IMG/VR virus record: IMGVR_UViG_2541047815_000004
Direction: 5' to 3' (one strand)
DNA from: a virus
Lineage: Duplodnaviria; Heunggongvirae; Uroviricota; Caudoviricetes
Length of the DNA stretch: 48,720 nt
Shown: one piece after another, positions 1,285-43,944 of the stretch
How positions within the stretch are numbered: position 1 is the stretch's first letter
Layout of the letters: each line of letters begins with the position of its first letter
Notes under the pieces: generated by a model
What the model saw: only the letters and a program-made list of their open reading frames with translations
Told to the model about the DNA's origin: nothing
The model's database searches: none
Position numbers and translations under genes: made by a program

Positions 1285-1885
1285 AATTCACAGGTGTTTT
1301 TTCCCATCCTGTGGTTTCCTTGGCGTTTTCTAGGTTTTTTCAGATAGTTGCATTTTTTTAAAAGCATCCTAAGTTCGATCTCAGTGTCTATCTGGGGCCT
1401 ATTTCTGTCCCATATATGCCCCAAAAAACTCCCCAACAGATAAGTAGTTTTTTCATGGATTTACGCGTAAAATCAATAACGGCTGGAAATCATTCAATAC
1501 TCGCACTATCGAAAAATTTACCAGCCAACCGCAGCACGTTCTTGCATAAGGTGTGTCTGCGGTTTTTCAACTATTCAGATACATCACTCCCATCACATTC
1601 ATTCCTCCACATCAAAGGCATATAGGCTATATCACCTTGATATTTTTCTTCTTCAGATAAAAACTGTTATCTATGTATACTTTTAAACCCAATCCGTGTA
1701 GAGTCTCTGCATAAGATAGTTTGCAGTTGACACTTCAGCTTGCGCCATAAACCGCCTGATTTTTGCCGCCACCTGTTAGCATTCCTGTATACCTGAAACG
1801 ACAATGTTTATCTACGAACTTTAAGAACACCCAAGATAAAATTGTCAACTATATCATATATAACACATTACTAATTCGAGGCTAT

Positions 1886-1999
1886 ATGAACAGCATACTG
1901 ATAATCACTTCTCTCCTTATCATATTCAGCATTTTTAGTCATGCCCTAATAAAATTAGGGATTGGCATATCCAATAACCCAGACAAAACCGATGTATAA
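1886..1999 (+). CDS. Candidate 37-aa small hydrophobic protein ([37 protein letters not shown])
   Basis: ATG at 1886 preceded by a GAGG Shine-Dalgarno-like motif about 6 nt upstream; one predicted transmembrane helix; inside the 78-aa track ORF 1763..1999. Confidence 0.3.
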
Positions 2000-2067
2000 G
2001 TCAACATATCCTGAATCAGACATACAATATCGCAATGAAAATCAATAATATTTTAAGGAATATCTTC

Positions 2068-2301
2068 ATGAAATCAAAAGACACCCTAAAGTGGTTCCCT
2101 GCGCAGCTTCCTGAAGTAAGAATTATCCTAGGGGATGCTGTAGTGGAAGTAGCAAAACAGGGAAGACCTATCAATACCAGAACATTGCTTGATTACATTG
2201 AAGGAAACATAAAGAAAAAGTCATGGCTGGATAACAAAGAATTATTACAAACAGCGATATCAGTTCTTAAAGACAACAAAAATTTAAATGGTAAAATGTA
2301 A
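2068..2301 (+). CDS. ydfK: Small cold-shock-associated protein YdfK/YnaE family, 77 aa
   Basis: Met12 of track ORF 2035..2301 with AAGGAA Shine-Dalgarno 6 nt upstream; sequence recognised as YdfK. Confidence 0.75.
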   Translation: MKSKDTLKWFPAQLPEVRIILGDAVVEVAKQGRPINTRTLLDYIEGNIKKKSWLDNKELLQTAISVLKDNKNLNGKM

Positions 2302-2617
2302 TATAATAAACTTACTTTTTTATCATTTTTTCACTTTAACAACATTTTGCTCCACTTTTCCACGACCAAACAACTTGAAATCTGGTTAAAATAACACGCA
2401 ACACTATTCTTCTTCCTTGAGTCCGCCCGGAACTCGAAAAACAAACCGAGTTAAAGCCATTTTTCACAAAATCGATTTTGGGTCTCACCAAAGTTACGGG
2501 GTTGCATACGCATTCGTTTATTTTCGAACGTGTACATACAAATATGCACAAAAATAATCAAAATTATTTTCTGAGATGCATTATGATATGAACACCAATT
2601 TCGTATAGAGTCTCACT

Positions 2618-3208
2618 ATGTCTCGAATTTTTGCTTACTGTCGGATATCAACGCTGGATCAGACCACCGAAAATCAACGCCGGGAAATCGAAAGTGCAGG
2701 TTTTAAAATCAAACCTCAGCAAATAATCGAAGAACACATTAGCGGCTCAGCAGCAACCAGTGAGCGTCCTGGTTTTAACCGGTTGCTTGCTCGCCTGAAA
2801 TGTGGTGATCAATTGATTGTGACAAAACTGGATCGCCTTGGTTGTAATGCAATGGATATCAGGAAAACAGTGGAACAACTGACCGAAACAGGTATCAGAG
2901 TGCATTGCTTAGCATTGGGGGGCATTGACCTGACCAGTCCAACTGGAAAAATGATGATGCACGTAATTTCAGCAGTCGCTGAATTTGAACGAGACCTTTT
3001 ACTTGAACGCACTCATTCCGGGATAGTAAGAGCCCGCGGCGCAGGGAAACGTTTTGGTCGACCACCTGTGTTAAATGAAGAACAGAAACAGGTGGTATTC
3101 GAACGAATTAAGTCAGGTGTAAGTATAAGTGCCATTGCCCGGGAATTCAAAACCTCGCGGCAAACCATTTTAAGAGCCAAAGCAAAACTTCAGACACCTG
3201 ACATATAA
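2618..3208 (+). CDS. pinQ: Serine recombinase, DNA invertase of the Pin/Gin/Hin/Cin family, 196 aa
   Basis: N-terminal resolvase catalytic motif (YCRISTLDQ with the active-site Ser), C-terminal HTH; length and sequence match Pin invertases. Confidence 0.9.
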
Positions 3209-8013: not shown

Positions 8014-11000
8014 TCAACGAATACTGATGCCGGAAGCGGCTTTTTTGGTCACAATCACCGTACAGTCGGTGATATTGCCTGCCCCCTGATTGCCTTTCTG
8101 GAAAATCTTAAACTCCAGAGTGACGCTTCCCCTGCCACTCGGCATATCAATAACTGCACTGTAACTACCGGGAATGGCCCCTTTAGTTTCTCTGGATGCG
8201 ATTAATACGCCGTTTTTGCGAACTTCAAAACCATAACCCGTGTATCGCGTGCCTCCTGGGTTATTTCCGCTCCCCGGATCGTCATACGCTATACCGTTAA
8301 AAATAATGGGCGGAATAATAATCTGGCGGTCAAAGTTATGATCATCGCTGATGGTGACTGTAACCGTACCGTTTGGTGTTTCCGTGTTACCCCACGTACC
8401 GACTTTTTTCGGGAAGGCTTTTGATACAGCTTTAACGAAATCTCCTCTGACCTGGGTCGCCTCCAGCATGCCCTTAATCGTACAGTTCTGGTTAATCGTG
8501 ACATTGTTGAGCGTTCCTGAGTTCGCATTCACACTGCCACTGATATCCGCATTTTTCGCCGTCAGTCTCCCGTCTGATGTCAGGGAAAATGCCGGAGGAT
8601 TACCGCCGCTGGTAATGGTGGGGGCCGTCAGGCGTTTCAGGAACACTTCATTCATGAATATCTGATCGCCCTGACCAACAAACATCGGCTTTGTGTTGCC
8701 ATTCGCAGGATTAATCATCGCAATCCTGTCTGCTGCCAGCAGCACCTGACTCTGCATGCCGTCAGGGGTGTTCTCAATACCGGCACCGATACCCGCAATA
8801 TAAAGGCGTCCGTCCTGCATCTGCTGCAGCTTCACTGCCCACATGCTGTTCAGGTTATTATTTGTATCAACCTGAACCTTCTGTATCTGCTGGATCGCTG
8901 CACTCTGGTCTTCCAGTTTCTTATTGACGGTCTGTGTTATTTCATTGCTGACATCCGTTATGGACGTCCTGATTTCAGTCAGGTCAGGCGCAAGCTGACC
9001 GTTATCAATCTGCGTCCACAGCTCCTGAGCCAGATGGGTTTTCCCTATCTCGCCTTTGAAAAAATCCAGATAGCCTGATGCATCATCACTCGGCTGACCG
9101 ACAGCCTCCACGAATGCCGATTTGCCAACGGTGTTCACACTGCGAACGTAAAAATAATAATCATGGCCCGGTTTGATATTGATACTGGCGGCTATCCAGT
9201 ACAGTGCCGTACCAAGATAACGCGCGCTGGTTTCAACCTGCCTGATATCCGCAATCCGTTTTTCCGAGAACCAGAACTCAAACTGTACCGTCGGGTCATA
9301 AACCGCAAGATGCGGCGTGGCGGTTATCTGAAAATAGCCCGGTGTCAGCTCAATCCGAGACGGCGCTGCCGGTGCGGCAATCCGGAACGATACCGATGCC
9401 GGATCGCCCTGCAGCCCCCACGCATTTACCGCCCGGACCGTCAGCATGTAACGCCCCAGCGCCAGTTGCGTGAAGCGGTATGTGGTTTCCGTCGTCCGGG
9501 CCGTGCTGACCAGCCGCTCACTGCCGTCATCCGCTGCCACGGTCAGGCGAAGCAGGAAGCTCACGCCCTTCACCACTTTCGGCGTGTCCCAGCGGGCCAG
9601 CACCTGGTATTCCCCGCTGTCTGCGGTGACTTCGGCAGTCAGGTGCTGCACCGCTGGCGGCGTGACACCATTCACCGTGCCGCTCTGGTCGCCGTCAAAG
9701 TGCGCCCCGTTATCCACGATGGCCTCTTTCTCCGGTACATGCTGCACGGCAGTGATGGCATACGTGCCGTCGTCGTTCTCACGGATACTCACGCAGCGGA
9801 ACAGGCGATGGCGCAACGTCGGCAACTTCAGCCCCCACACGCTGTATTCAGCAACGCCGTCAGGAACACGGCTCACTTTTACCTTCACGCCGTCGGTGAC
9901 GGACTGGACCTCCACGCTGACCGGATTACCCTCACCGTCAACCAGGCTTATCAGCGTGGTGCCGGAGGATGGCAGCGTGATTTCACGGTCGAGCGTCAGC
10001 GTCCGGGTCTGGCTGTTCACCGCCAGCACGCGACCACCGATGCTGATACCGGCATAGTCATCATCGCAGATTTCAATAACATCGCCCGGCACATGGCGAA
10101 GCCCTTCTGCGCCCACGCTGAAATCCACGGTCTGCGTTTCCAGCAGTTCCGTTTTAATCAGCCACAGCCCGGCTCGGTGTGCCTGCCCCCGGCTGGTACA
10201 GCCAAAGGCATCCATCTTCGTGACATTACGACCGTAACGGGCAATGGCCTGCGTATCTTCAACAAGCTCTGTCGCCGTCTCCCAGCCGTTGTTCGGGTCA
10301 ATCCAGTTCACCTCAACGGCATTATGGCGGTCCTTCAGGGCGCTGAAGCTGTAGCGGAACGGCGCGCCATCATCCGGCATCACCACATTACTGCGGTTAT
10401 AGGTCCACACCTTATCCGACTGTCGGTCCTGCACGAACGTCAGCGTCTGCCCGTTCCATACCGGCATACAGCGCATCGCCGAGCAGAAATCACTGAGCAC
10501 ATCCCACGCCTTGCGCTGTGTGGTCAGGTAAGCGTTACAGGTGATGCGCGGCTCCGTGCCGCCAAAGCCGTCCGGCACCGACTGGTCGCAATTCTGGCCG
10601 ATGACATACAGCGCCCATTTATCCACATCCGCCGCACCAAGACGTTTCCCCATGCCGTAGCGCGGATGGGTCAGCATATCCCACAGACACCAGGCCATGT
10701 TGTTGCTGTATGCCGGTTTTAACGTTCCGTCCCAGATACCGCTGTATTGCCGCGTCTGCGGGTTATAGTTCGACGGCACCTGCAGAATGCGCCCGCGAAG
10801 ATGATAATTACGGCTCACCTGCTGGCTGCCGAACTGCTCCGAGTCCACCTGCACGCCAACCAGTGCCGTGTTCGGGTAGCACTGTTTCACATCGATGATT
10901 TCGGTGTATGACGACCAGAGCGTTTTGTTCTGCAGCTGGTCTGTGGTGCTGTCCGGCGTCATCCTGCGCATCCGGATATTAAACGGGCGCGGCGGCAGGT

Positions 11001-26867: not shown

Positions 26868-27035
26868 ATGCGAACCATAAATGCCTCATCTTCAGCAATG
26901 CAACCGGCATCCGAACAGGACGATATTGTAAATTCACCTAATTACGAGGACATTGCAGTAGTTGAATTGCAGCTCTGTATTAGCCTGACAGTGACAGAAT
27001 GCGATATTGACTCTGTCACAGGTGAAATAGTTTGA
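26868..27035 (+). CDS. Candidate 55-aa acidic small protein (MRTINASSSAMQPASEQDDIVNSPNYEDIAVVELQLCISLTVTECDIDSVTGEIV)
   Basis: ATG with GAGGGG Shine-Dalgarno 5 nt upstream; below the 60-aa cutoff of the ORF track; no homologue recognised. Confidence 0.25.
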   Translation: MRTINASSSAMQPASEQDDIVNSPNYEDIAVVELQLCISLTVTECDIDSVTGEIV

Positions 27036-27055
27036 ATGATTAGCAGTTATGGTGC

Positions 27056-27262
27056 TCAGTCAACCACCAGGGAATAATCCTTCGAATTCTTATCGTGCTT
27101 CACCAACGCTGCCTCAATTGCCCTGAATGCTTCCAGAGACACCTGATGTTCTATACATGCAATTACAACATCCGGGTAACTCATAGAAATGGTGCTATTA
27201 AGCATATTTTTTACACGAATCAGATCCAACGAGAGTTCATCAGCAGATTGTTCTTTATTCAT
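27056..27262 (-). CDS. ynfO: Small prophage protein YnfO-like, 68 aa
   Basis: Recognised from memory as a Qin small protein; position between terminase and ydfO. Confidence 0.5.
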
Positions 27263-27562
27263 TTTGTCGCTCCATGCGTTTGCTCGTCATCTAGCGGTTA
27301 AAATATTACTTCAAATCTTACTGCATAAAAGAGGAAAAGTATGAAAGTTTGAGTACATCGACCTTACATACATCTGTCGGTTGCATATCCCTCCTGGATG
27401 CCAGCAAGGCTCAATTTTGTTACGCAATCAACACTATTCATTAAAAACAGGCTTAATATTTAACATAAATCATCAACAAAACACAAAGAGGTCAGACCAG
27501 ATTGAAACAATAAACACGATAATGCTAACTACGCGCCATCGTATCACATGGAAGGTTTACCA

Positions 27563-27973
27563 ATGGCTCAGGCTGCCATTTTTAAAGAAATATTCGATCA
27601 AGTGCGTAAAGATTTAAACTGTGAATTATTTTATTCTGAGCTAAAACGTCACAATGTCTCACTTTATATTTACTATTTAGCCACAGATAATATTCACATT
27701 GTGTTAGAAAACGACAACATAGTGTTAGTAAAAGGACTCAAAAAGGTTGTAAATGTTAAATTCTCCAGAAACAAACATCTTATAGAGACCTCCTATAATA
27801 AGTTGAAATCAAAAGAAATCACATTTCAACAATACAGGGAAAATCTTGCTAAAGCAGGAGTTTTCCGATGGGTTACAAATATCCAGGAACACCAAAGATA
27901 TTACTATGCCTTTGATAACTCATTACTATTTACTGAAAGCATCCAGAAAACTACACAGATCTTACCACGCTAA
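27563..27973 (+). CDS. ydfO: YdfO (DUF1398) prophage protein, 136 aa from Met6
   Basis: Sequence [33 protein letters not shown]... recognised as YdfO. Confidence 0.7.
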
Positions 27974-28124
27974 ACCATAACGTCCGGCTTCTCTCACTCC
28001 TGAGCCGGACTGCATTGGTTTAATAAAAACCATCAACAATTGTGATTTAGATATTCGGAACCATTCAAATATAACAAAACCCCGTAAAAACGAGGTTTAT
28101 GGATAAATTTTATTATTGAATACA

Positions 28125-28298
28125 TCAGATTAAATTAATCTTGACATCATAGCTTTCAAGACCCGTCATTTTTTCCCGTGCGGTAAACTGAATACTGGTA
28201 ACTTCTTTCCCGGTCTTTTTCTTAAGTTCAATAATTTTTTTTGTTATATATTCAGAAATATCTGCTTCTGCTTTTGTTTTTAAGTTTTCAATATTCAT
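28125..28298 (-). CDS. gnsB: GnsB-like small protein, 57 aa (alternative ATG at 28301)
   Basis: Hand-translated: MNIENLKTKAEADISEYITKKIIELKKKTGKEVTSIQFTAREKMTGLESYDVKINLI; AAGAGGA Shine-Dalgarno; not in the ORF track because it is under 60 aa. Confidence 0.6.
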   Translation of the reverse strand: MNIENLKTKAEADISEYITKKIIELKKKTGKEVTSIQFTAREKMTGLESYDVKINLI

Positions 28299-28469
28299 CA
28301 TTTCCTCTTTTAGTCTGTTATGACTTTCCAGTTACACAGTAAGTCGATTATATGGTGCAAACGTGTAAAAGATAAGATGAAACATCGCAATAATCAACAT
28401 ACGATAGTCTAAATTTTACACAAACAGACAAAGAGAATTTTCCTGAATTATCAATACAATAGCATCAAA

Positions 28470-28700
28470 TCAACTCAAGAGCCTTATTGCTGCTTCCAGA
28501 ATTTCTTCTGAAGTAACATGTCGATCCGCGGCTACATAAATGACTTTATGATCTCCGGTCAGAGATGGAAACCCTGCGGCCATTACAGTAAGGTGTGTTT
28601 TTTCGCCATTTGGATATTCACGCATGATGGTGTTAACTCCAGTCATCGCTGGCACTACCGCTGCTGGTTCAGAGTTAAAAAAAACTATGATTTTTTTCAT
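28470..28700 (-). CDS. Hypothetical small protein, about 76 aa from Met15 (possibly YnfN by synteny)
   Basis: Track ORF 28470..28742 begins at a TTG; first ATG is at 28700; lies between gnsB and cspI. Confidence 0.35.
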   Translation of the reverse strand: MKKIIVFFNSEPAAVVPAMTGVNTIMREYPNGEKTHLTVMAAGFPSLTGDHKVIYVAADRHVTSEEILEAAIRLLS

Positions 28701-28740
28701 GATGTTACCGTAGTATGTGAGTATCCATCGAATAGATACC

Positions 28741-28764
28741 AAGCAAAAAAGCTCCCGAAGGAGC
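28741..28764 (-). terminator. Intrinsic terminator with UUCG tetraloop downstream of cspI
   Basis: Minus-strand RNA GCUCC-UUCG-GGAGC followed by UUUUUUGCUU; about 200 nt after the cspI stop. Confidence 0.5.
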
Positions 28765-28971
28765 CTTCATTTTCACTTTTTTAAATCCAACGACAGACGG
28801 CTGGCATTTAAGTATTGTGAAATATTATCAAATGTAATCATCATTGATTTACAAAAGATACATTTTGCCCCGAAAGGATTCATGTCAGAAACATCAAAAG
28901 ATGATGTTCTATACTGGGAACCATGACAACACGGGCATCTAAAGTGAATATGGTTTGTAATATTGTCTACC

Positions 28972-29184
28972 TCAAAGCGCCACTACATGAACAGCGGCAG
29001 GACCTTTAGGTCCGTTCTCAATACCAAATTCAACTTCCTGATTCTCAGTTAATGTTTTGAAATCGTTGCTCTGAATTGCTGAGAAATGGACAAACACATC
29101 TTTGCTGCCATCTTTCGGCGTGATGAAACCAAAACCTTTTTCAGGGTTAAACCATTTCACTAAACCAGTCATTTTGTTAGACAT
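28972..29184 (-). CDS. cspI: Cold shock protein CspA family, 70 aa
   Basis: Cold-shock-domain motifs KWFN..KGFGFI and VHFSAI; recognised as CspI. Confidence 0.9.
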
Positions 29185-29546
29185 AATTATTACCTTTTGA
29201 AGAAATTAGCCCTTGGGCAGAATGGTCCGAAAAAAAATATCAGAGAGAAAAACCAACAAGGAAATCTCAAGAGGTACAAATAATAAAATTATAACAATGA
29301 CTGCTTCAGATAAATTTGTAACAAACCAGAACACCATTAACGCATGATTAACCACCCATAGCAAGGATTACTTTTGTAAAGAAAAACACAGCAATGAAAG
29401 AATAGCTTTATTTATTAATAAAACGTGTCATTCTGATTAAGACCTTTTATCTTGCCCTTAAGATTTCAGGAATTTTGGCTCATGGAAGAGTCCTTTTTAT
29501 TTAAATTTTACATTCCGCGATGTAAATGTTCCGATTTAATATTACC

Positions 29547-31831: not shown

Positions 31832-32143
31832 TCATATATATTTATGATGAGGACGCTCGTGCTTATTGGCAGGATTTTCAATCTTAAAGGAGTACTGATG
31901 CTGCAGATAAGACTCAACTTTTTCTGACAATTTTTCTGCTACTTCCAGGAAGACTTGCCGGACGCTCCTTCTGGCTGCTGCCTCATAAAACTCCAGCGCA
32001 GCTCCTTCAACACGGTCCATGGCGACATCCAGGTCAAAAATTTCACCGTCAAAGCGTTCCTTGTCCTGTAAGGCTACAGTTACCGTAACTTTATTCTCAA
32101 AATTACGGACTCCTTTCACAACCAGTTCATAGTCTTGAGTCAT
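31832..32143 (-). CDS. ydfR: YdfR (DUF1327) lysis-cassette-associated protein, 103 aa
   Basis: Recognised from memory as Qin YdfR; between holin and endolysin. Confidence 0.75.
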   Translation of the reverse strand: MTQDYELVVKGVRNFENKVTVTVALQDKERFDGEIFDLDVAMDRVEGAALEFYEAAARRSVRQVFLEVAEKLSEKVESYLQHQYSFKIENPANKHERPHHKYI

Positions 32144-32147
32144 TGTA

Positions 32148-32363
32148 TTACTCTCCTCTCGCAGCCTTACGCCTGTCTTCTTTAATCTTGAAATAAAGAT
32201 TTGTCAGATACGTCAGCAGGCCAAAAACCAGGCTACCCAGCACACCGATTGCAGCCCACTGTGACGGAGTTACTTTATCGAGTAACTGCAATGCCCAGAA
32301 ACCAGCATTACCCGCCGATGTGCCATAGGCAACACCTGTTGTTAACTTATCCATTGATTTCAT
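32148..32363 (-). CDS. essQ: Phage 21 S-type pinholin, 71 aa with dual-start motif MKSM
   Basis: Met27 of the track ORF; sequence ...[62 protein letters not shown] matches S21-type holins; partnered with a SAR endolysin. Confidence 0.8.
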
Positions 32364-32583
32364 ATCCTCACCCCGATGTACACGGATGGTGCAATATGTT
32401 TGAAAAAGATCGGAGTCTACGGGGTAGTTTTGACAGCACACGTTGTTCTCAACGGCGCTAAAGAAACATACACATTAAAAATGTGAGTAATTATTTTGAA
32501 AGAAAGTCATATATAAAATAATAATACGAGAAATGTTTTCATATTTAGTGTACTGTATACGGCCATTTATACAGGAAAAGCCT

Positions 32584-32754
32584 ATGTCAGAACGTAAAGA
32601 CTCAAAATCACGCCGTAATTATCTCGTTAAATGTTCCTGCCCAAACTGCACCCAAGAGTCAGAACACAGTTTTTCAAGAGTACAAAAAGGTGCCCTTTTG
32701 ATCTGCCCTCATTGCAACAAAGTATTCCAGACAAATCTTAAAGCTGTAGCCTGA
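32584..32754 (+). CDS. Hypothetical 56-aa zinc-ribbon protein (CSCPNC...CPHC)
   Basis: ATG preceded by AGGAAAAG Shine-Dalgarno; two CxxC pairs; Met18 of the track ORF. Confidence 0.4.
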   Translation: MSERKDSKSRRNYLVKCSCPNCTQESEHSFSRVQKGALLICPHCNKVFQTNLKAVA

Positions 32755-32810
32755 TTGATTTTATTAGTAACAAGTATTTTTTATATTTTAATAATATATT
32801 TAAAGCAGAT

Positions 32811-32836
32811 AATAAAAAACCCGCCTGAGCGGGTTT
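32811..32836 (-). terminator. Intrinsic terminator (bidirectional potential) between cspB and essQ
   Basis: 8-bp stem AAACCCGC/GCGGGUUU with 4-nt loop; minus-strand transcript continues UUUAUUAU. Confidence 0.55.
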
Positions 32837-33117
32837 GAGATTGTGGTGCTTTTTGTGGGAGTCATCCACTTACGCACTTTGTTTTGCGATGCCAGCAGTT
32901 AGCTTCTGCTGTGAAACTATTCATGCAGCAAACCTGCACTTCACCACAATGGTTAGCATACTTTTCCTGATTAAGATTTTGCCAAATATGCTAGCCATTG
33001 TTTCATGTATTGGACCTCCTTACTTTTTATTAAAGAGATCCAATATTCACTACTCTGTCCGTATCTCTACTCAGGCATCAGCCTTCTTCGTTATCGTATA
33101 CAGACGAGCGATGAATT

Positions 33118-33333
33118 TTAATCAGTAATGATGACATTTGCTGCTGCAGGACCTTTAGCACCACTCTCTATAGAGAAGGTAACCTTTTGACCTTCAAATA
33201 AGGTTCGATAATTATCATTCTGAATCGCAGAAAAATGCACAAACACATCTTTACTACCATCAACAGGAGAAATAAAGCCGAAACCTTTATCAGCGTTAAA
33301 CCATTTTACTAAACCAGTCATTTTATTTGACAT
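33118..33333 (-). CDS. cspB: Cold shock protein CspA family, 71 aa
   Basis: Cold-shock-domain motifs; recognised as CspB. Confidence 0.9.
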
Positions 33334-33633
33334 TCTACATTCCTTAACTTGAGCCTTTCGGCATAAATGGTTTGCATAACAGAAACGACTTCGTACTTAA
33401 TTGGAGAGACTCAAAGAAGGAATAAGTGAATAACACCTGAAATGAGAACTGCTTTAGTAAACTACTTCGTATATCGTCTGTTCTTCAAACCGACGCAATC
33501 ATTAACGCATAGTTGAACATATGAAGCAATGTTTATTTTAGACATCCAGCCATCTTCAACCCCATCAAAAAACTATAGCTTTCTTCAGGAACGTGTGTAT
33601 AGTGCGCCAAGTTATCAGTATTAAGGAATTTTT

Positions 33634-33846
33634 TTGTCCCGTAAAATGACAGGAATTGTCAAAACCTTTGACGGCAAAAGCGGCAAGGGTCTTATCACCC
33701 CATCCGATGGTCGTATCGATGTCCAGCTTCATGTTTCAGCGCTCAATCTCCGCGATGCAGAAGAAATTACCACCGGATTACGCGTGGAATTTTGCCGGAT
33801 AAATGGTCTGCGTGGCCCTTCAGCTGCCAATGTTTACCTTTCATGA
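33634..33846 (+). CDS. cspF: Cold shock protein family member, 70 aa, apparent TTG start
   Basis: Recognised as CspF-like; TTG at 33634 preceded by TAAGGAA Shine-Dalgarno; an in-frame ATG lies 4 codons downstream. Confidence 0.8.
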
Positions 33847-34138
33847 GCTATATTAAAGCTTTAATTTCAGGCCCCATCGGATCACACATGGAGAGTTTTT
33901 ATGAATAACCCCGTCTGTCTTGATGACTGGTTGATTGGCTTTAAAAGCTTATGCTGTACTTTGGCCGTAATAGCTCTGCTAATAATATAATAAGCAGACT
34001 CATTGTGTTTAGGGACATTGTACTGGAAGAAAACATTTTAAACATCAGGCAAATAACCAAGTCACCAGCTAAATAATAAGTTAACAGACATGAGTCCCGG
34101 GATGAGATTCAACATTACCATTGCCCCATTTAAAGCAC

Positions 34139-36897: not shown

Positions 36898-37053
36898 TTA
36901 CTCCTCAGGTTCGTAAGCTGTGAAGACAGCGACCTCCGTCTGCCCGGTTCGGATTCGTACCTCGCAGAGGTCTTTCCTCGTTACCAGTGCCGTCACTATG
37001 ACGGTTAAACAGATGACGATCAGGGCGATTAACATCGCCTTTTGCTGCTTCAT
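36898..37053 (-). CDS. hokD: Hok-family type I toxin, 51 aa
   Basis: MKQQKAMLIALIVICLTVIVTALVTRKDLCEVRIRTGQTEVAVFTAYEPEE; AAGGAG Shine-Dalgarno; in-frame upstream extension in the track ORF. Confidence 0.85.
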   Translation of the reverse strand: MKQQKAMLIALIVICLTVIVTALVTRKDLCEVRIRTGQTEVAVFTAYEPEE

Positions 37054-37516
37054 AGCCTGCTTCTCCTTGCCTTTCGGCACGTAAGAGGCTAGCCTACATG
37101 TGTCTAGCATGAAATTGGCCTCAGATTAATGTTAAGCGTCTTGCAGGACGCGTAATGTTAACTGGGGCTTTTCTCTATCTGCCGTTGGTGTTCATGCCCG
37201 AGGCAGATACGTCAGTGATTCAATACAACTATTGGGTATAGTTCCTCTGATTTTTTCTGTGGAAATGGGGCACAACCACTAGTCACCACCAGCACTTCTT
37301 TTAATACGCAAAGTCCGACACAAGCTAACCTTCTAGTCCGCTTTGAGCGAGGAACGGACGTTGTATAGGTTAGTTAGCGCATCCTCATGAATTGGTGTTC
37401 CTTAAGAGATTCATAACGAAGCGTTTGCATCGGCGGTAGTGTTTATAATCGGTATGAGCCCCCGAGAGGGCTCACATTTCAAATGTATTACGAGGTTACG
37501 CTCAATTAGAAACTTC

Positions 37517-39808
37517 TCATATGTTTCCGCGATAAATCACATTCAAAGCCCGTCGAGAGTAAGACATCAGTTCACCTGGCGTGATGGGTTCTGATGATGC
37601 CTGAGGGTTCGTGTCATGATGATAGCGACCAGCATAATTGTTAATTTCATTCAACTCAGGTACCAGTGATTTAGCGAAGAATAACGGATCGCTCGGTTGT
37701 GCTTGTGCAATCTGCGCTACTACCTCTCCAAACAGATTTCCCGGTGAAATTTGCCCCGGGAAACGACGATGCAGATACCCTTCAAGAAGCGGTCTGATCG
37801 CCACCGCCGTATCGTGAAGCTGATGATGAGCACCATCGGCAAATCCGCTCACCAGACGATGATTTTTATAGTAGGGAGATTCACATTCCAGATCGATATC
37901 TAGTTTATCCAAGCTACTGAAATCACCAGCAATGTTGACAATGCGTAAGGTTGAAATGTCCTGCATTTGAGTAGCAGGTATTTTCAGGAACTCATCTCGC
38001 ATGGTACGGATAAAGAACAGGTCGTGCGCCAAGATGATTACCTGCAAGCTGCGAAGGTAAATCTGTTTAATGATGGTGATTGTGTGGTTCCTGCGATGAT
38101 TGTCCAGACTACACATCGGATCATCAATCACTACAATTTTTCTCTCAAGATCAACGTCATGAAGCAACACTGAAATAAAGAATGCGAAGGCTAGCGTCCT
38201 TTTGTCCCCTTCACTCAATGAGCTCCGGAAACTGGATTCTTCTCCCGTTAGCGAAATCTTTTCCCCTCTAAGTTCAATTGCATATTCAGACTTAGGCTCA
38301 CCGCCGCCAGCATAGTTATAATTAATTTCTGTGATGCGAAAGCTTGCACCAAACTTCATCAATAAATCATTGATGGAGGATTGATACTTTCCAAGGGTCG
38401 AGTCCATGATCGCATTGAGTTCAGCCCTCCGTGTTTCCTTCAGTTCAGAGGCAACCACTTCAGCAGTTTTAGCGGTCTGATAATCAGAGATAAAACCTAC
38501 TATCTCAGGTGATAGACGAAGTCGTGTTGCTTCATACTGGGATAATGTAACCCGCAGGGTTTCTTCATTTTTGGTTTCAAGCGCCTCTTTATAAGCCTGA
38601 ATATCCAGATTGGCAGCTTCCACGCCCGAATTAAAGATAGAAAGCTCATCATTGATTGCAGTTACTGCATCCGCGATTTCTTTTTCATAGTCGCCTTGGG
38701 TCTTTGCAAGCGGATCGTTTTTCTTGGCTTCCGTTAAGCGGTTCAGCGATGATTGAAGACCTTCCAAACTAGCTTTAATTTTATCTAAATCAGGGAGACT
38801 CACGGGCAACTGGAGACAATCTTTCCAATTTTCAGTCACTAAACCAGCCTGCTCAATCTTGCTTTCAAGTAAGGCCAGATTGAAAACGCGCATGGCAGTC
38901 GCCACAACTTTATCTAGGCCTGTGACCTGATTAAGTAAGGCTTTGTATGCAAGATTAAACCGCTCCCGGTAGTACCGGATCAGTTCAATACCCTCCAGGC
39001 TTTGCGTACAGAAAGGACAATATTCGTCTTTTATATAATCAAGGCCGTTGCTCGCCCATCGCTCAAAACCTTCGACATTGATATGGTCAATATGCGCACA
39101 GACGACCTCTTCTGCACCCGCACTGAGGCTGTCATAGCTAGCTGCAAGAGTGGAAAAAAAAGAACTGAAATCAGGAGCGTAAAGAGGTAACGAAAGATAA
39201 CCCGTACGGTTGCGGATCGTCTCTATTCTTTTGCAGAGATCCAGTTCTGATTCGACTAATGCAATTTTTTCCTGAATGTTATCTTCCTGAACAGGCTTTA
39301 TGTATTTTGCTAGAGTTACATTCCCCCGGGCTACTGTCAGCTTTTCACTTGCCAGTCTCGTAACTCTCTTGGCCTCCTCTGCCTTGTCTGATGCATCAAT
39401 AAAAGCAGCCCTCGCGGCTACCGCATCACTGCCCAGCGCAAAACTCAGCAGTCGCTTTCTATGGCTAGCGCTGATTTCACCACCTGAGTAAACATTACGG
39501 TCAACAAAATCTAGGTCGAAGACGTGCACATCTGAATACTTACCATTCCATGTATCGTTATCGTAAATCGCACGATTTCCCTGCGAAAACTGCAGATGAA
39601 TATTTTGAGGGGTCGTTTCCCCAATCGTTTTCCTGTGCCGTACAATATCTGGATTTAATTCAGTGTAGGAACGCAGAATTGACGCAAGGGTGGATTTACC
39701 ACGCCCATTATCAGCATAGACAAAGGTCATTTTTTTAAAGGACATACCAGCAGGACGGATATCCTGGAATAAACCCACGCTGGTAATTTGATGAATTCTT
39801 TCAAGCAT
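37517..39808 (-). CDS. ABC/SMC-type P-loop ATPase with coiled-coil insertion carrying a CxxC motif and an unassigned C-terminal domain, 763 aa; candidate anti-phage defence protein
   Basis: Walker A ADNGRGKST (aa 32-40); about 500 aa predicted coiled coil with CPFC at aa 264-267; signature-like LSEGDK, Walker B KIVVIDDP, D-loop SLD and H-loop ILAHD near aa 530-610; about 150-aa C-terminal domain with RPLLE and HH motifs; AAGGGA Shine-Dalgarno. Confidence 0.6.
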   Translation of the reverse strand: MLERIHQITSVGLFQDIRPAGMSFKKMTFVYADNGRGKSTLASILRSYTELNPDIVRHRKTIGETTPQNIHLQFSQGNRAIYDNDTWNGKYSDVHVFDLDFVDRNVYSGGEISASHRKRLLSFALGSDAVAARAAFIDASDKAEEAKRVTRLASEKLTVARGNVTLAKYIKPVQEDNIQEKIALVESELDLCKRIETIRNRTGYLSLPLYAPDFSSFFSTLAASYDSLSAGAEEVVCAHIDHINVEGFERWASNGLDYIKDEYCPFCTQSLEGIELIRYYRERFNLAYKALLNQVTGLDKVVATAMRVFNLALLESKIEQAGLVTENWKDCLQLPVSLPDLDKIKASLEGLQSSLNRLTEAKKNDPLAKTQGDYEKEIADAVTAINDELSIFNSGVEAANLDIQAYKEALETKNEETLRVTLSQYEATRLRLSPEIVGFISDYQTAKTAEVVASELKETRRAELNAIMDSTLGKYQSSINDLLMKFGASFRITEINYNYAGGGEPKSEYAIELRGEKISLTGEESSFRSSLSEGDKRTLAFAFFISVLLHDVDLERKIVVIDDPMCSLDNHRRNHTITIIKQIYLRSLQVIILAHDLFFIRTMRDEFLKIPATQMQDISTLRIVNIAGDFSSLDKLDIDLECESPYYKNHRLVSGFADGAHHQLHDTAVAIRPLLEGYLHRRFPGQISPGNLFGEVVAQIAQAQPSDPLFFAKSLVPELNEINNYAGRYHHDTNPQASSEPITPGELMSYSRRALNVIYRGNI

Positions 39809-40101
39809 ATAAATCCCTTTTTCTTCGCAATTTTTACCGCTGTGGATTGAGATTAGAACAAGATGAATACTAGTGCACCGTCCTACTAGGAGGATTTTTT
39901 CTGGTGTTGACTCCGTTTGGATGCAGTTAACATATCACGGTTCTGCTCCCCACAGATTGATGCAGATAGATGTTAGTAACGTCTGCTCCTGGCACAAAGC
40001 GGACAACCACGCCAGATCTACCCTGTGCCATGAAAAATGAGAATGTCAATTCACTCCTGAACTAATGCTTTTTAATCTAGTAACGTCTAAAATACCTAAC
40101 A

Positions 40102-40503
40102 TTATCCCTGATAAAATGCCAGTATGCGCTGCATAACTTCACTCATCCGGCACTCGCGACAGATTATGTTTAGGCGACTGTCGTAGCGACGTATTTCTCC
40201 ATCAGGTAACGACCAGATAAGGTCCGGATCAACCACAGCTGTTTTCTTCACCTTTGCCCTCGAGAGTTTTTTGCGGGCGTTTTGCCAGTCCTTACGCGCC
40301 TGTTCAGACGGGAATAACCCGTAGCCGGAGTTGTATACATCGCCACTGGCTACCAGCTCTCTGGCAAGAACGCTCATCAGATATCTAGTCGCACCTGTTT
40401 TAGCTTCCAGTTGCCGTAACGTCTCACGACCGCTCTGGCGCACGAGTTCCACCACCTGCCCTTTAATTTTTTCCCGCTCTTCTTGTGTAAAAACTTTTGC
40501 CAC
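40102..40503 (-). CDS. Hypothetical 133-aa basic protein, GTG start with strong AGGGGGA Shine-Dalgarno
   Basis: Between the O-like replication gene and the ATPase; Lys/Arg-rich, possible HTH; no homologue recognised. Confidence 0.45.
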   Translation of the reverse strand: MAKVFTQEEREKIKGQVVELVRQSGRETLRQLEAKTGATRYLMSVLARELVASGDVYNSGYGLFPSEQARKDWQNARKKLSRAKVKKTAVVDPDLIWSLPDGEIRRYDSRLNIICRECRMSEVMQRILAFYQG

Positions 40504-43891: not shown

Positions 43892-43944
43892 TTTCTGGTG
43901 ACGTTTGGCGGTATCAGTTTTACTCCGTGACTGCTCTGCCGCCG
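43892..43944 (+). ncRNA. dicF: DicF small RNA (ftsZ-targeting sRNA processed from the dicB operon transcript)
   Basis: Sequence TTTCTGGTGACGTTTGGCGGTATCAGTTTTACTCCGTGACTGCTCTGCCGCC followed by TTTTT matches DicF as recalled; between ydfC and dicB. Confidence 0.8.

Follow-up and report, generated by a model that had tools for sequence, protein, structure and literature searches.

The window analyzed here is the whole 48,720-nt stretch of IMG/VR virus record IMGVR_UViG_2541047815_000004, and it aligns to the Escherichia coli genome NZ_CP151045.1, in which the prophage lies between a truncated ydfJ and rspB, next to rspAB. The whole of it, 1 to 48720, represents a Qin-type lambdoid prophage that is structurally complete, having genes for terminase, portal, capsid, tail and fibers as well as pinQ, a lysis cassette, dicB/DicF and an integrase, whereas the Qin of K-12 is a remnant. 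We are concerned with a single gene of this prophage, which encodes a 763-amino-acid (aa) protein combining an ABC-ATPase, a predicted zinc hook and a C-terminal HEPN-type domain, and which is probably an RloC-family anticodon nuclease carried as self-contained cargo. An earlier note, made from the sequence alone, had proposed an open reading frame (ORF) at 37517–39808 as a candidate defense gene; the ORF is complete, lies on the minus strand and starts at ATG. Its parts are as follows.

37517..39808, minus strand: gene of the RloC-type ABC-ATPase/zinc-hook/HEPN protein (predicted), complete ORF of 763 aa plus stop
39470..39808, minus strand: ABC-ATPase head lobe I, aa 1–113, from the AlphaFold2 model and alignment, with Walker A inside
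39689-39715, minus strand: Walker A ADNGRGKST, aa 32–40 (GRGKST, aa 35–40)
38354..39469, minus strand: helical (coiled-coil type) insert, aa 114–485, from the AlphaFold2 model
39008..39019, minus strand: CPFC, predicted zinc-hook motif, aa 264–267; C264, C267 and Q269 are invariant even at 23–27% identity
37964..38353, minus strand: ABC-ATPase head lobe II, aa 486–615, from the AlphaFold2 model, alignment and Rad50-head matches
38201-38218, minus strand: signature LSEGDK, aa 531–536
from 38117, minus strand: Walker B/D-loop KIVVIDDPMCSLD (KIVVIDDP, aa 557–564)
38021-38035, minus strand: H-loop ILAHD, aa 592–596
37520..37963, minus strand: C-terminal domain, aa 616–763, a short β element followed by an HEPN-like helical bundle (aa 638–760)
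37781..37795, minus strand: R672-P-L-L-E676 (RPLLE, aa 672–676), the Arg-x3-Glu of the predicted anticodon-nuclease triad, invariant
37616..37621, minus strand: H730-H731 His dyad (in RYHHD, aa 728–732), invariant, candidate third triad residue, preceded by N723, which is also invariant

The RefSeq entry for this protein, WP_016233232.1, names it only "AAA family ATPase". By comparison with its relatives, the ORF is a genuine gene and not a chance ORF, because a protein database search returned 403 homologs at E<1e-5, because these are of similar length (about 760 aa in nearly all of the 120 best listed), and because the ratio of nonsynonymous to synonymous substitution rates (dN/dS) against an 85%-identical allele is 0.15 overall. 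Against the same allele, dN/dS is 0.07 in head lobe II, 0.15 in the C-terminal domain and 0.17 in the coiled coil, values indicating that every domain is under purifying selection. Mean identity across the family is highest in the HEPN core (62%) and lowest in the coiled coil (33%). The gene had been judged by eye to be more AT-rich than the structural genes, and its guanine-plus-cytosine (GC) content is indeed 44–46% versus 52–60% in the latter.

The ABC-ATPase motif set is complete (GRGKST, LSEGDK, VVIDDPMCSLD and AHD), with K38, S532, D535, D562, D563, D569 and H595 invariant, and the ATPase region aligns to Rad50 heads. The full-length AlphaFold2 model (predicted local distance difference test score, pLDDT, 84.4) folds into five regions, namely lobe I, a helical excursion, lobe II (at aa 490–610, inside the aa 486–615 given above), a small β element and a helical bundle, and positions the CxxC on the apical loop of the excursion, where confidence is lower. 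Conservation of C264-P-x-C267-x-Q269 down to 23% identity is consistent with the CxxC of the insert being a zinc hook, as predicted. The solved structures closest to the whole-protein model are Rad50 and SMC heads, Lamassu LmuB, JetC and the retron Ec83 complex (9e8z chain C); there is no PrrC or RloC structure among its structure matches. The earlier note had read a split ABC motif set (aa 32–40 and about 530–610), CPFC within a coiled-coil insertion and a C-terminal domain of about 150 aa with RPLLE and a His-rich motif; the domain and its two motifs are present, and the positions of the ABC motifs and of CPFC are exact. The insertion itself is long and helical as described, but it spans about 370 residues (aa 114–485) rather than 500, with roughly 490 residues separating Walker A from the signature.

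The C-terminal domain is predicted to be an HEPN-type anticodon-nuclease domain. Structure prediction, which had been suggested for this part of the protein, yields the helical bundle at aa 638–760, and the fold is that of an HEPN bundle. An alignment of 43 homologs (down to 36% identity) leaves invariant the Walker A Lys, C264, C267, Q269, the S/E/D/K of the signature, D562-D563 and H595, and, within the C-terminal domain, R672, E676, H680, N723, H730 and H731. After extension of this alignment with full-length plasmid relatives from Rhodoferax, Xanthomonas, Vibrio and Arcobacter (23–34% identity), all of these residues are retained except H680; as H680 varies in the distant plasmid relatives, the triad is best assigned to R672/E676/H730(H731). 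A profile of the C-terminal domain retrieved 1148 cluster representatives at E up to 0.001, and the top full-length matches are mostly proteins of 750–790 aa that carry the domain at the C terminus. The search also brought up a 2162-aa protein (P0249) in which 20 separate stretches match a 33-residue segment of the profile (positions 16–48, ahead of the main helices of the bundle), and which looks like a repeat protein made of this segment.

RloC was defined by the motifs of an ABC-ATPase, by a coiled-coil insert that bears a CXXC zinc hook and by a C-terminal Arg-X3-Glu-X36-52-His anticodon-nuclease triad; in GkaRloC, the enzyme of G. kaustophilus, the residues are C291 and R692/E696/H737, and all 72 listed orthologs were screened for the three defining features (Davidov & Kaufmann 2008, PMC2610378). 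The 763-aa protein has the ABC motifs, the CXXC insert and the R-x3-E...H triad, the last with a spacing of X53/X54. Pfam AAA_13 scores 133 bits against a cutoff of 36, and the best PADLOC match is the PDC-S06 model PDLC04895 (E=7.4e-72, aa 1–691), with 12 more PDC-S06 models also matching. The PADLOC LmuB, mad3 and PrrC models match the ATPase part only (PrrC, aa 475–609; LmuB, E=2e-14), and no NCBIfam model scores above its cutoff. A BLASTP comparison with a 770-aa plasmid protein of Rhodoferax ferrireducens T118 shows the two proteins to be collinear and 34% identical along their entire length (E=5e-148), with CPFC, RxxLE and HHDTNP all aligned. The Rhodoferax protein is almost certainly entry 39 of the founding RloC list, since strain, length and helicase neighbor agree with that entry ("770 aa; Helicase like"); it is encoded on a plasmid beside a helicase-related gene, whereas the 763-aa gene lies in a prophage. 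PDLC04895 is the model assigned to the Rhodoferax protein and to distant relatives also, and because these share it with the 763-aa protein, PDC-S06, a label that carries no mechanism, appears to cover this RloC-like family. Several homologs at 38–83% identity bear the IMG or UniRef name "wobble nucleotide-excising tRNase", although these labels are automated; the phrase is the COG name of RloC. The AAA_13 and PDC-S06 matches, the invariant RloC features and the homology to a listed ortholog bear out the earlier suggestion, offered with profile searches as its check, of an RloC/PrrC-like ATPase-effector protein. The gene is a new and rare E. coli member of a known family and does not represent a new type of system; RloC itself dates from 2008, ABC-HEPN fusions had been reported from prophages in 2013, and the novelty is modest.

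The gene sits between hokD/sok on one side and DUF977 with the replication genes on the other, the position that had been assigned to it, and K-12 carries relE-relB directly beside hokD, as had been stated for Qin. The borders of this slot and the blocks that flank the gene are the following.

36898..37214, minus strand: hokD toxin gene with sok antisense RNA, bounding the variable slot on the left
37389..37516, minus strand: downstream non-coding block (128 bp) that moves with the gene
37454-37475: 10-bp GC-rich hairpin just past the stop (-15.8 kcal/mol, z=-3.6); it lacks a U-tract and is conserved across the three replicon contexts
39809..40004, minus strand: upstream non-coding block (about 196 bp) that moves with the gene, conserved on an Erwinia plasmid and in the STEC299 prophage
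40102..40503, minus strand: DUF977 gene, which closes the replication module and bounds the variable slot on the right

Because both flanking blocks are conserved on the Erwinia billingiae plasmid and in STEC299, the cargo unit can be bounded at 37389-40004, or about 2.6 kb. The upstream block contains a Shine-Dalgarno sequence, AAGGGA, and a short inverted repeat, TCCTA-G-TAGGA, at 39878-39894. This repeat, a candidate regulatory site, is conserved not only in the prophage but also in the STEC299 allele and on the Erwinia plasmid. The hokD and DUF977 flanks are present in 4797 E. coli genomes and the cargo between them varies. In this place other strains carry a HEPN-domain protein of 310 aa, an Sll1717-type P-loop ATPase of 495 aa, a DUF4209 protein that matches PADLOC PDC-S39 (E=8e-103), QueH, an α/β hydrolase, methyltransferases or unknowns. 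By this comparison of some 4800 E. coli genomes, Qin/lambdoid prophages have a hypervariable cargo slot between hokD and DUF977.

The 763-aa gene is present in 8 of 5426 complete E. coli genomes. Seven of the copies are about 100% identical, and the eighth is the 85% allele, which occupies the same slot in a different lambdoid prophage; one of the eight (NZ_CP053787.1 2307548-2310615) is split by IS1A with the prophage retained. A search for further E. coli relatives, including the APEC O1 "RloC", by sensitive blastn and with a Klebsiella P2-borne gene as query found nothing beyond these 8 genomes. Outside E. coli, the copy on an Erwinia billingiae conjugative plasmid has 94% protein identity, and in P2-like prophages relatives at 45–46% identity occupy the interval from gpA to the portal gene, which has been described as the P2 old/tin defense hotspot (Rousset et al. 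2022). Other relatives are found on plasmids, or on islands that also carry a resolvase, a reverse transcriptase and a toxin-antitoxin pair. A tblastn search of plasmids gave 224 with a match, 155 of them conjugative, most of the matches being weak and partial. Among the loci compared (prophage, P2-like, plasmid and island), no neighboring gene is conserved across contexts, and for this reason the 763-aa gene probably acts alone, in keeping with the single-gene defense candidate that the earlier note had placed in a moron slot. Integrated phages, transposons or plasmids often carry rloC as their single cargo (Klaiman et al. 2012).

Two of the homologous loci have gene layouts of their own. The Alcaligenes homolog (L008/L009 9735-15170) is followed by an unannotated protein of about 758 aa, a resolvase and a pair formed by STM3845 and an RVT_1 reverse transcriptase, with a Gp49/HTH toxin-antitoxin pair upstream, a layout that resembles a defense island. 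A homolog at 66% identity (L004 3127-6940) is preceded, at a distance of 60 bp, by the gene of a 1106-aa DEAD/ResIII helicase, and the start of the helicase gene overlaps a 166-aa ORF; the helicase and this ORF may be another defense gene pair, and a contact-dependent inhibition (CDI) toxin/immunity pair is found nearby.

Directly supported for the 763-aa protein are its architecture and its invariant catalytic-type residues, together with the purifying selection on the gene and its occurrence as a solitary gene in mobile elements. For GkaRloC, excision of the wobble nucleotide from tRNA has been described, together with a DNA-dependent ATPase that switches the nuclease on (Davidov & Kaufmann 2008, PMC2610378; Klaiman et al. 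2012). By homology to GkaRloC and to AbaRloC of A. baylyi, the 763-aa protein would dimerize, and its zinc hook and ATPase module would hold the RNase off until linear DNA ends or DNA breaks arising from phage infection stimulate ATP hydrolysis and turn on the HEPN nuclease. The nuclease would then cleave the anticodon loop of tRNA so as to remove the wobble nucleotide, whereupon translation would stop and the infection abort, protecting sibling lysogens and thus the prophage. The tRNase activity is in this way inferred by homology, and abortion of infection by superinfecting phages is a hypothesis; prophage ABC-HEPN proteins have been proposed to block superinfection (Anantharaman et al. 2013).

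Several observations weigh against assignment to RloC, or against a role in phage exclusion. The canonical HEPN Rx4-6H motif is absent, there being no invariant Arg 4–6 residues ahead of H730/H731; instead an invariant Asn, N723, lies at −7 from the His dyad, and position 728 can be Q, R or K. The HEPN domains of PrrC and RloC have been described as atypical (2013 HEPN survey). The spacing from E676 to H730/H731 is 53/54 residues, 1–2 beyond the published X36-52; the listed Rhodoferax ortholog aligns gap-free across the Glu-His stretch and has the same spacing. A Foldseek search of the C-terminal domain against the PDB gave no significant match, with the top HEPN match at E of about 1, and none of the Pfam, NCBIfam and PADLOC PrrC models matches the domain itself. 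The placement in RloC, of which GkaRloC and AbaRloC are the biochemically validated members, follows from the 2008 features and one listed ortholog, and PDC-S06 is a computational candidate only, of the single-gene type. A simple scan of the upstream gap found no sigma-70 promoter and inspection by eye only weak candidates, while sequenced phage isolates gave no match beyond two weak partial ones. Finally, the direct evidence for phage exclusion by RloC proteins generally is thin in the papers on GkaRloC and AbaRloC.

Some of these features can be read another way. Relative to GkaRloC and AbaRloC (Davidov & Kaufmann 2008; Klaiman et al. 2012, 2013), the clade of about 765 aa (some 1,100 clusters at 50% identity) is marked by a His-His dyad, by Asn where HEPN has Arg and by a longer Glu-His spacing (53/54). 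It is possible, if somewhat unlikely, that the clade is a distinct RloC subfamily whose trigger or RNA target may be unlike that of GkaRloC and, jointly, that the hokD-DUF977 interval is an unrecognized defense hotspot like P2 old/tin. The same three features, the presence of the mRNases RnlA and LsoA among HEPN structural neighbors and the promiscuity of GkaRloC itself in vitro (Klaiman et al. 2012) would suit a generic abortive-infection RNase with the same architecture and switch that acts on another RNA, be it mRNA, rRNA or a different tRNA site. We consider this unlikely, as the R-x3-E...H set that defines PrrC and RloC is invariant and the homology to the listed RloC ortholog extends over the full length.

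A DNA-damage-responsive toxin, serving as an addiction or persistence factor or as a modulator of prophage induction and not in phage exclusion, would be consistent with the activation of AbaRloC by a DNA-break inducer in the absence of phage, for which a persistence role was discussed (Klaiman et al. 2013). The neighborhood would fit as well, the gene being beside hok/sok in the slot that holds relBE in K-12, both of them toxin-antitoxin systems. This explanation is nonetheless quite improbable, given that relatives occupy the validated P2 old/tin defense hotspot, that the 763-aa gene has no antitoxin partner and that one copy is inactivated by IS1 in a prophage that was retained.

The best solved-structure matches, Rad50 and SMC heads, and the location of the gene, which runs in the direction of the early-right operon and has the replication genes on one side and the Q antiterminator on the other, might instead suggest a Rad50/SbcC-like repair or recombination accessory of the phage "nin" region, with a C-terminal domain that does not cut RNA. 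Such a function is highly unlikely: the prophage has no Mre11/SbcD partner gene, NCBIfam Rad50 and RecF scores are far under their cutoffs (for Rad50, 16–26 bits versus 700–1000), the catalytic-type residues of the C-terminal domain are invariant and the domain is the most conserved part of the protein, and the gene is rare in E. coli whereas its flanks are common. On the lack of a partner, the Rad50 scores and the presence of the C-terminal HEPN domain, membership in Rad50/SbcC was rejected. A role as an ATPase in conjugative transfer, which the generic Pfam description of AAA_13 and the share of conjugative plasmids among the tblastn matches might suggest, has next to no chance of being right, since most plasmid matches are weak and partial and the gene occurs in prophages that have no transfer genes and is not accompanied by conserved transfer-gene neighbors.

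Comparison with characterized systems helps to delimit the RloC-type protein. PrrC of E. coli likewise joins an ABC-ATPase to a C-terminal HEPN-type domain with an Arg-x3-Glu...His triad, and infection is thought to be aborted by tRNA cutting in both PrrC and RloC types. PrrC differs in its length of about 400 aa, in having neither coiled coil nor zinc hook, in its invariable location in a type Ic restriction-modification locus that silences it, and in nicking tRNA with no excision of the wobble base. Membership in PrrC was rejected given the 763-aa length with a 370-aa insert, the absence of hsd genes nearby and the restriction of the PrrC model match to aa 475–609. P2 Old, Lamassu LmuB and the retron Ec83 complex resemble the 763-aa protein in using an ABC/SMC-type ATPase as sensor for a nuclease effector, but their effectors are TOPRIM, separate Cap4-type or HNH nucleases, whereas the HEPN domain here is fused. 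LmuB requires partner proteins, none of which accompanies the 763-aa gene; Lamassu membership was rejected on the weak LmuB match and the lack of a conserved neighbor in any context, and OLD/TOPRIM membership was rejected as well. P2 Old is located in the same P2 hotspot as relatives of the 763-aa gene and has recently been reported to cut tRNA. Among E. coli prophages, APECO1_4465-type proteins are ABC-ATPase-HEPN fusions with a proposed superinfection block (Anantharaman et al. 2013). The APEC O1 protein has 738 aa and was not detected by DNA search, and the 763-aa protein may fall in the APECO1_4465 subgroup or in RloC proper.

The biological role of RloC has so far been judged for the most part from two sources, a thermophile's enzyme studied by expression in E. 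coli and a soil bacterium for which no phage is known, and the authors of the RloC work called for hosts that express RloC naturally and have cognate phages. An intact copy native to an E. coli prophage, carried as a cargo unit of about 2.6 kb, would supply such a host and would allow direct tests of the RloC trigger during infection, of the tRNAs cut and of the defeat of T4 tRNA repair. PADLOC's unexplained PDC-S06 is here tied to a mechanistically studied family, and the hokD-DUF977 interval is flagged as a variable cargo slot worth mining. None of these points would surprise a specialist.

Elsewhere in the window, an IS3-family element breaks the prophage lom (Ail/Lom) gene at approximately 8061-9238. 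Rfam matches at gathering score are a cspA-type thermoregulator at 33102-33494 on the minus strand, sok at 37048-37214 on the minus strand and the DicF small RNA at 43893-43944 on the plus strand. Patches of low GC content (33–40%) at 1500-3000, 27000-29500 and 32000-34000 correspond to the ydfK/pinQ end and to the cold-shock clusters (cspI/gnsB and cspB/cspF).

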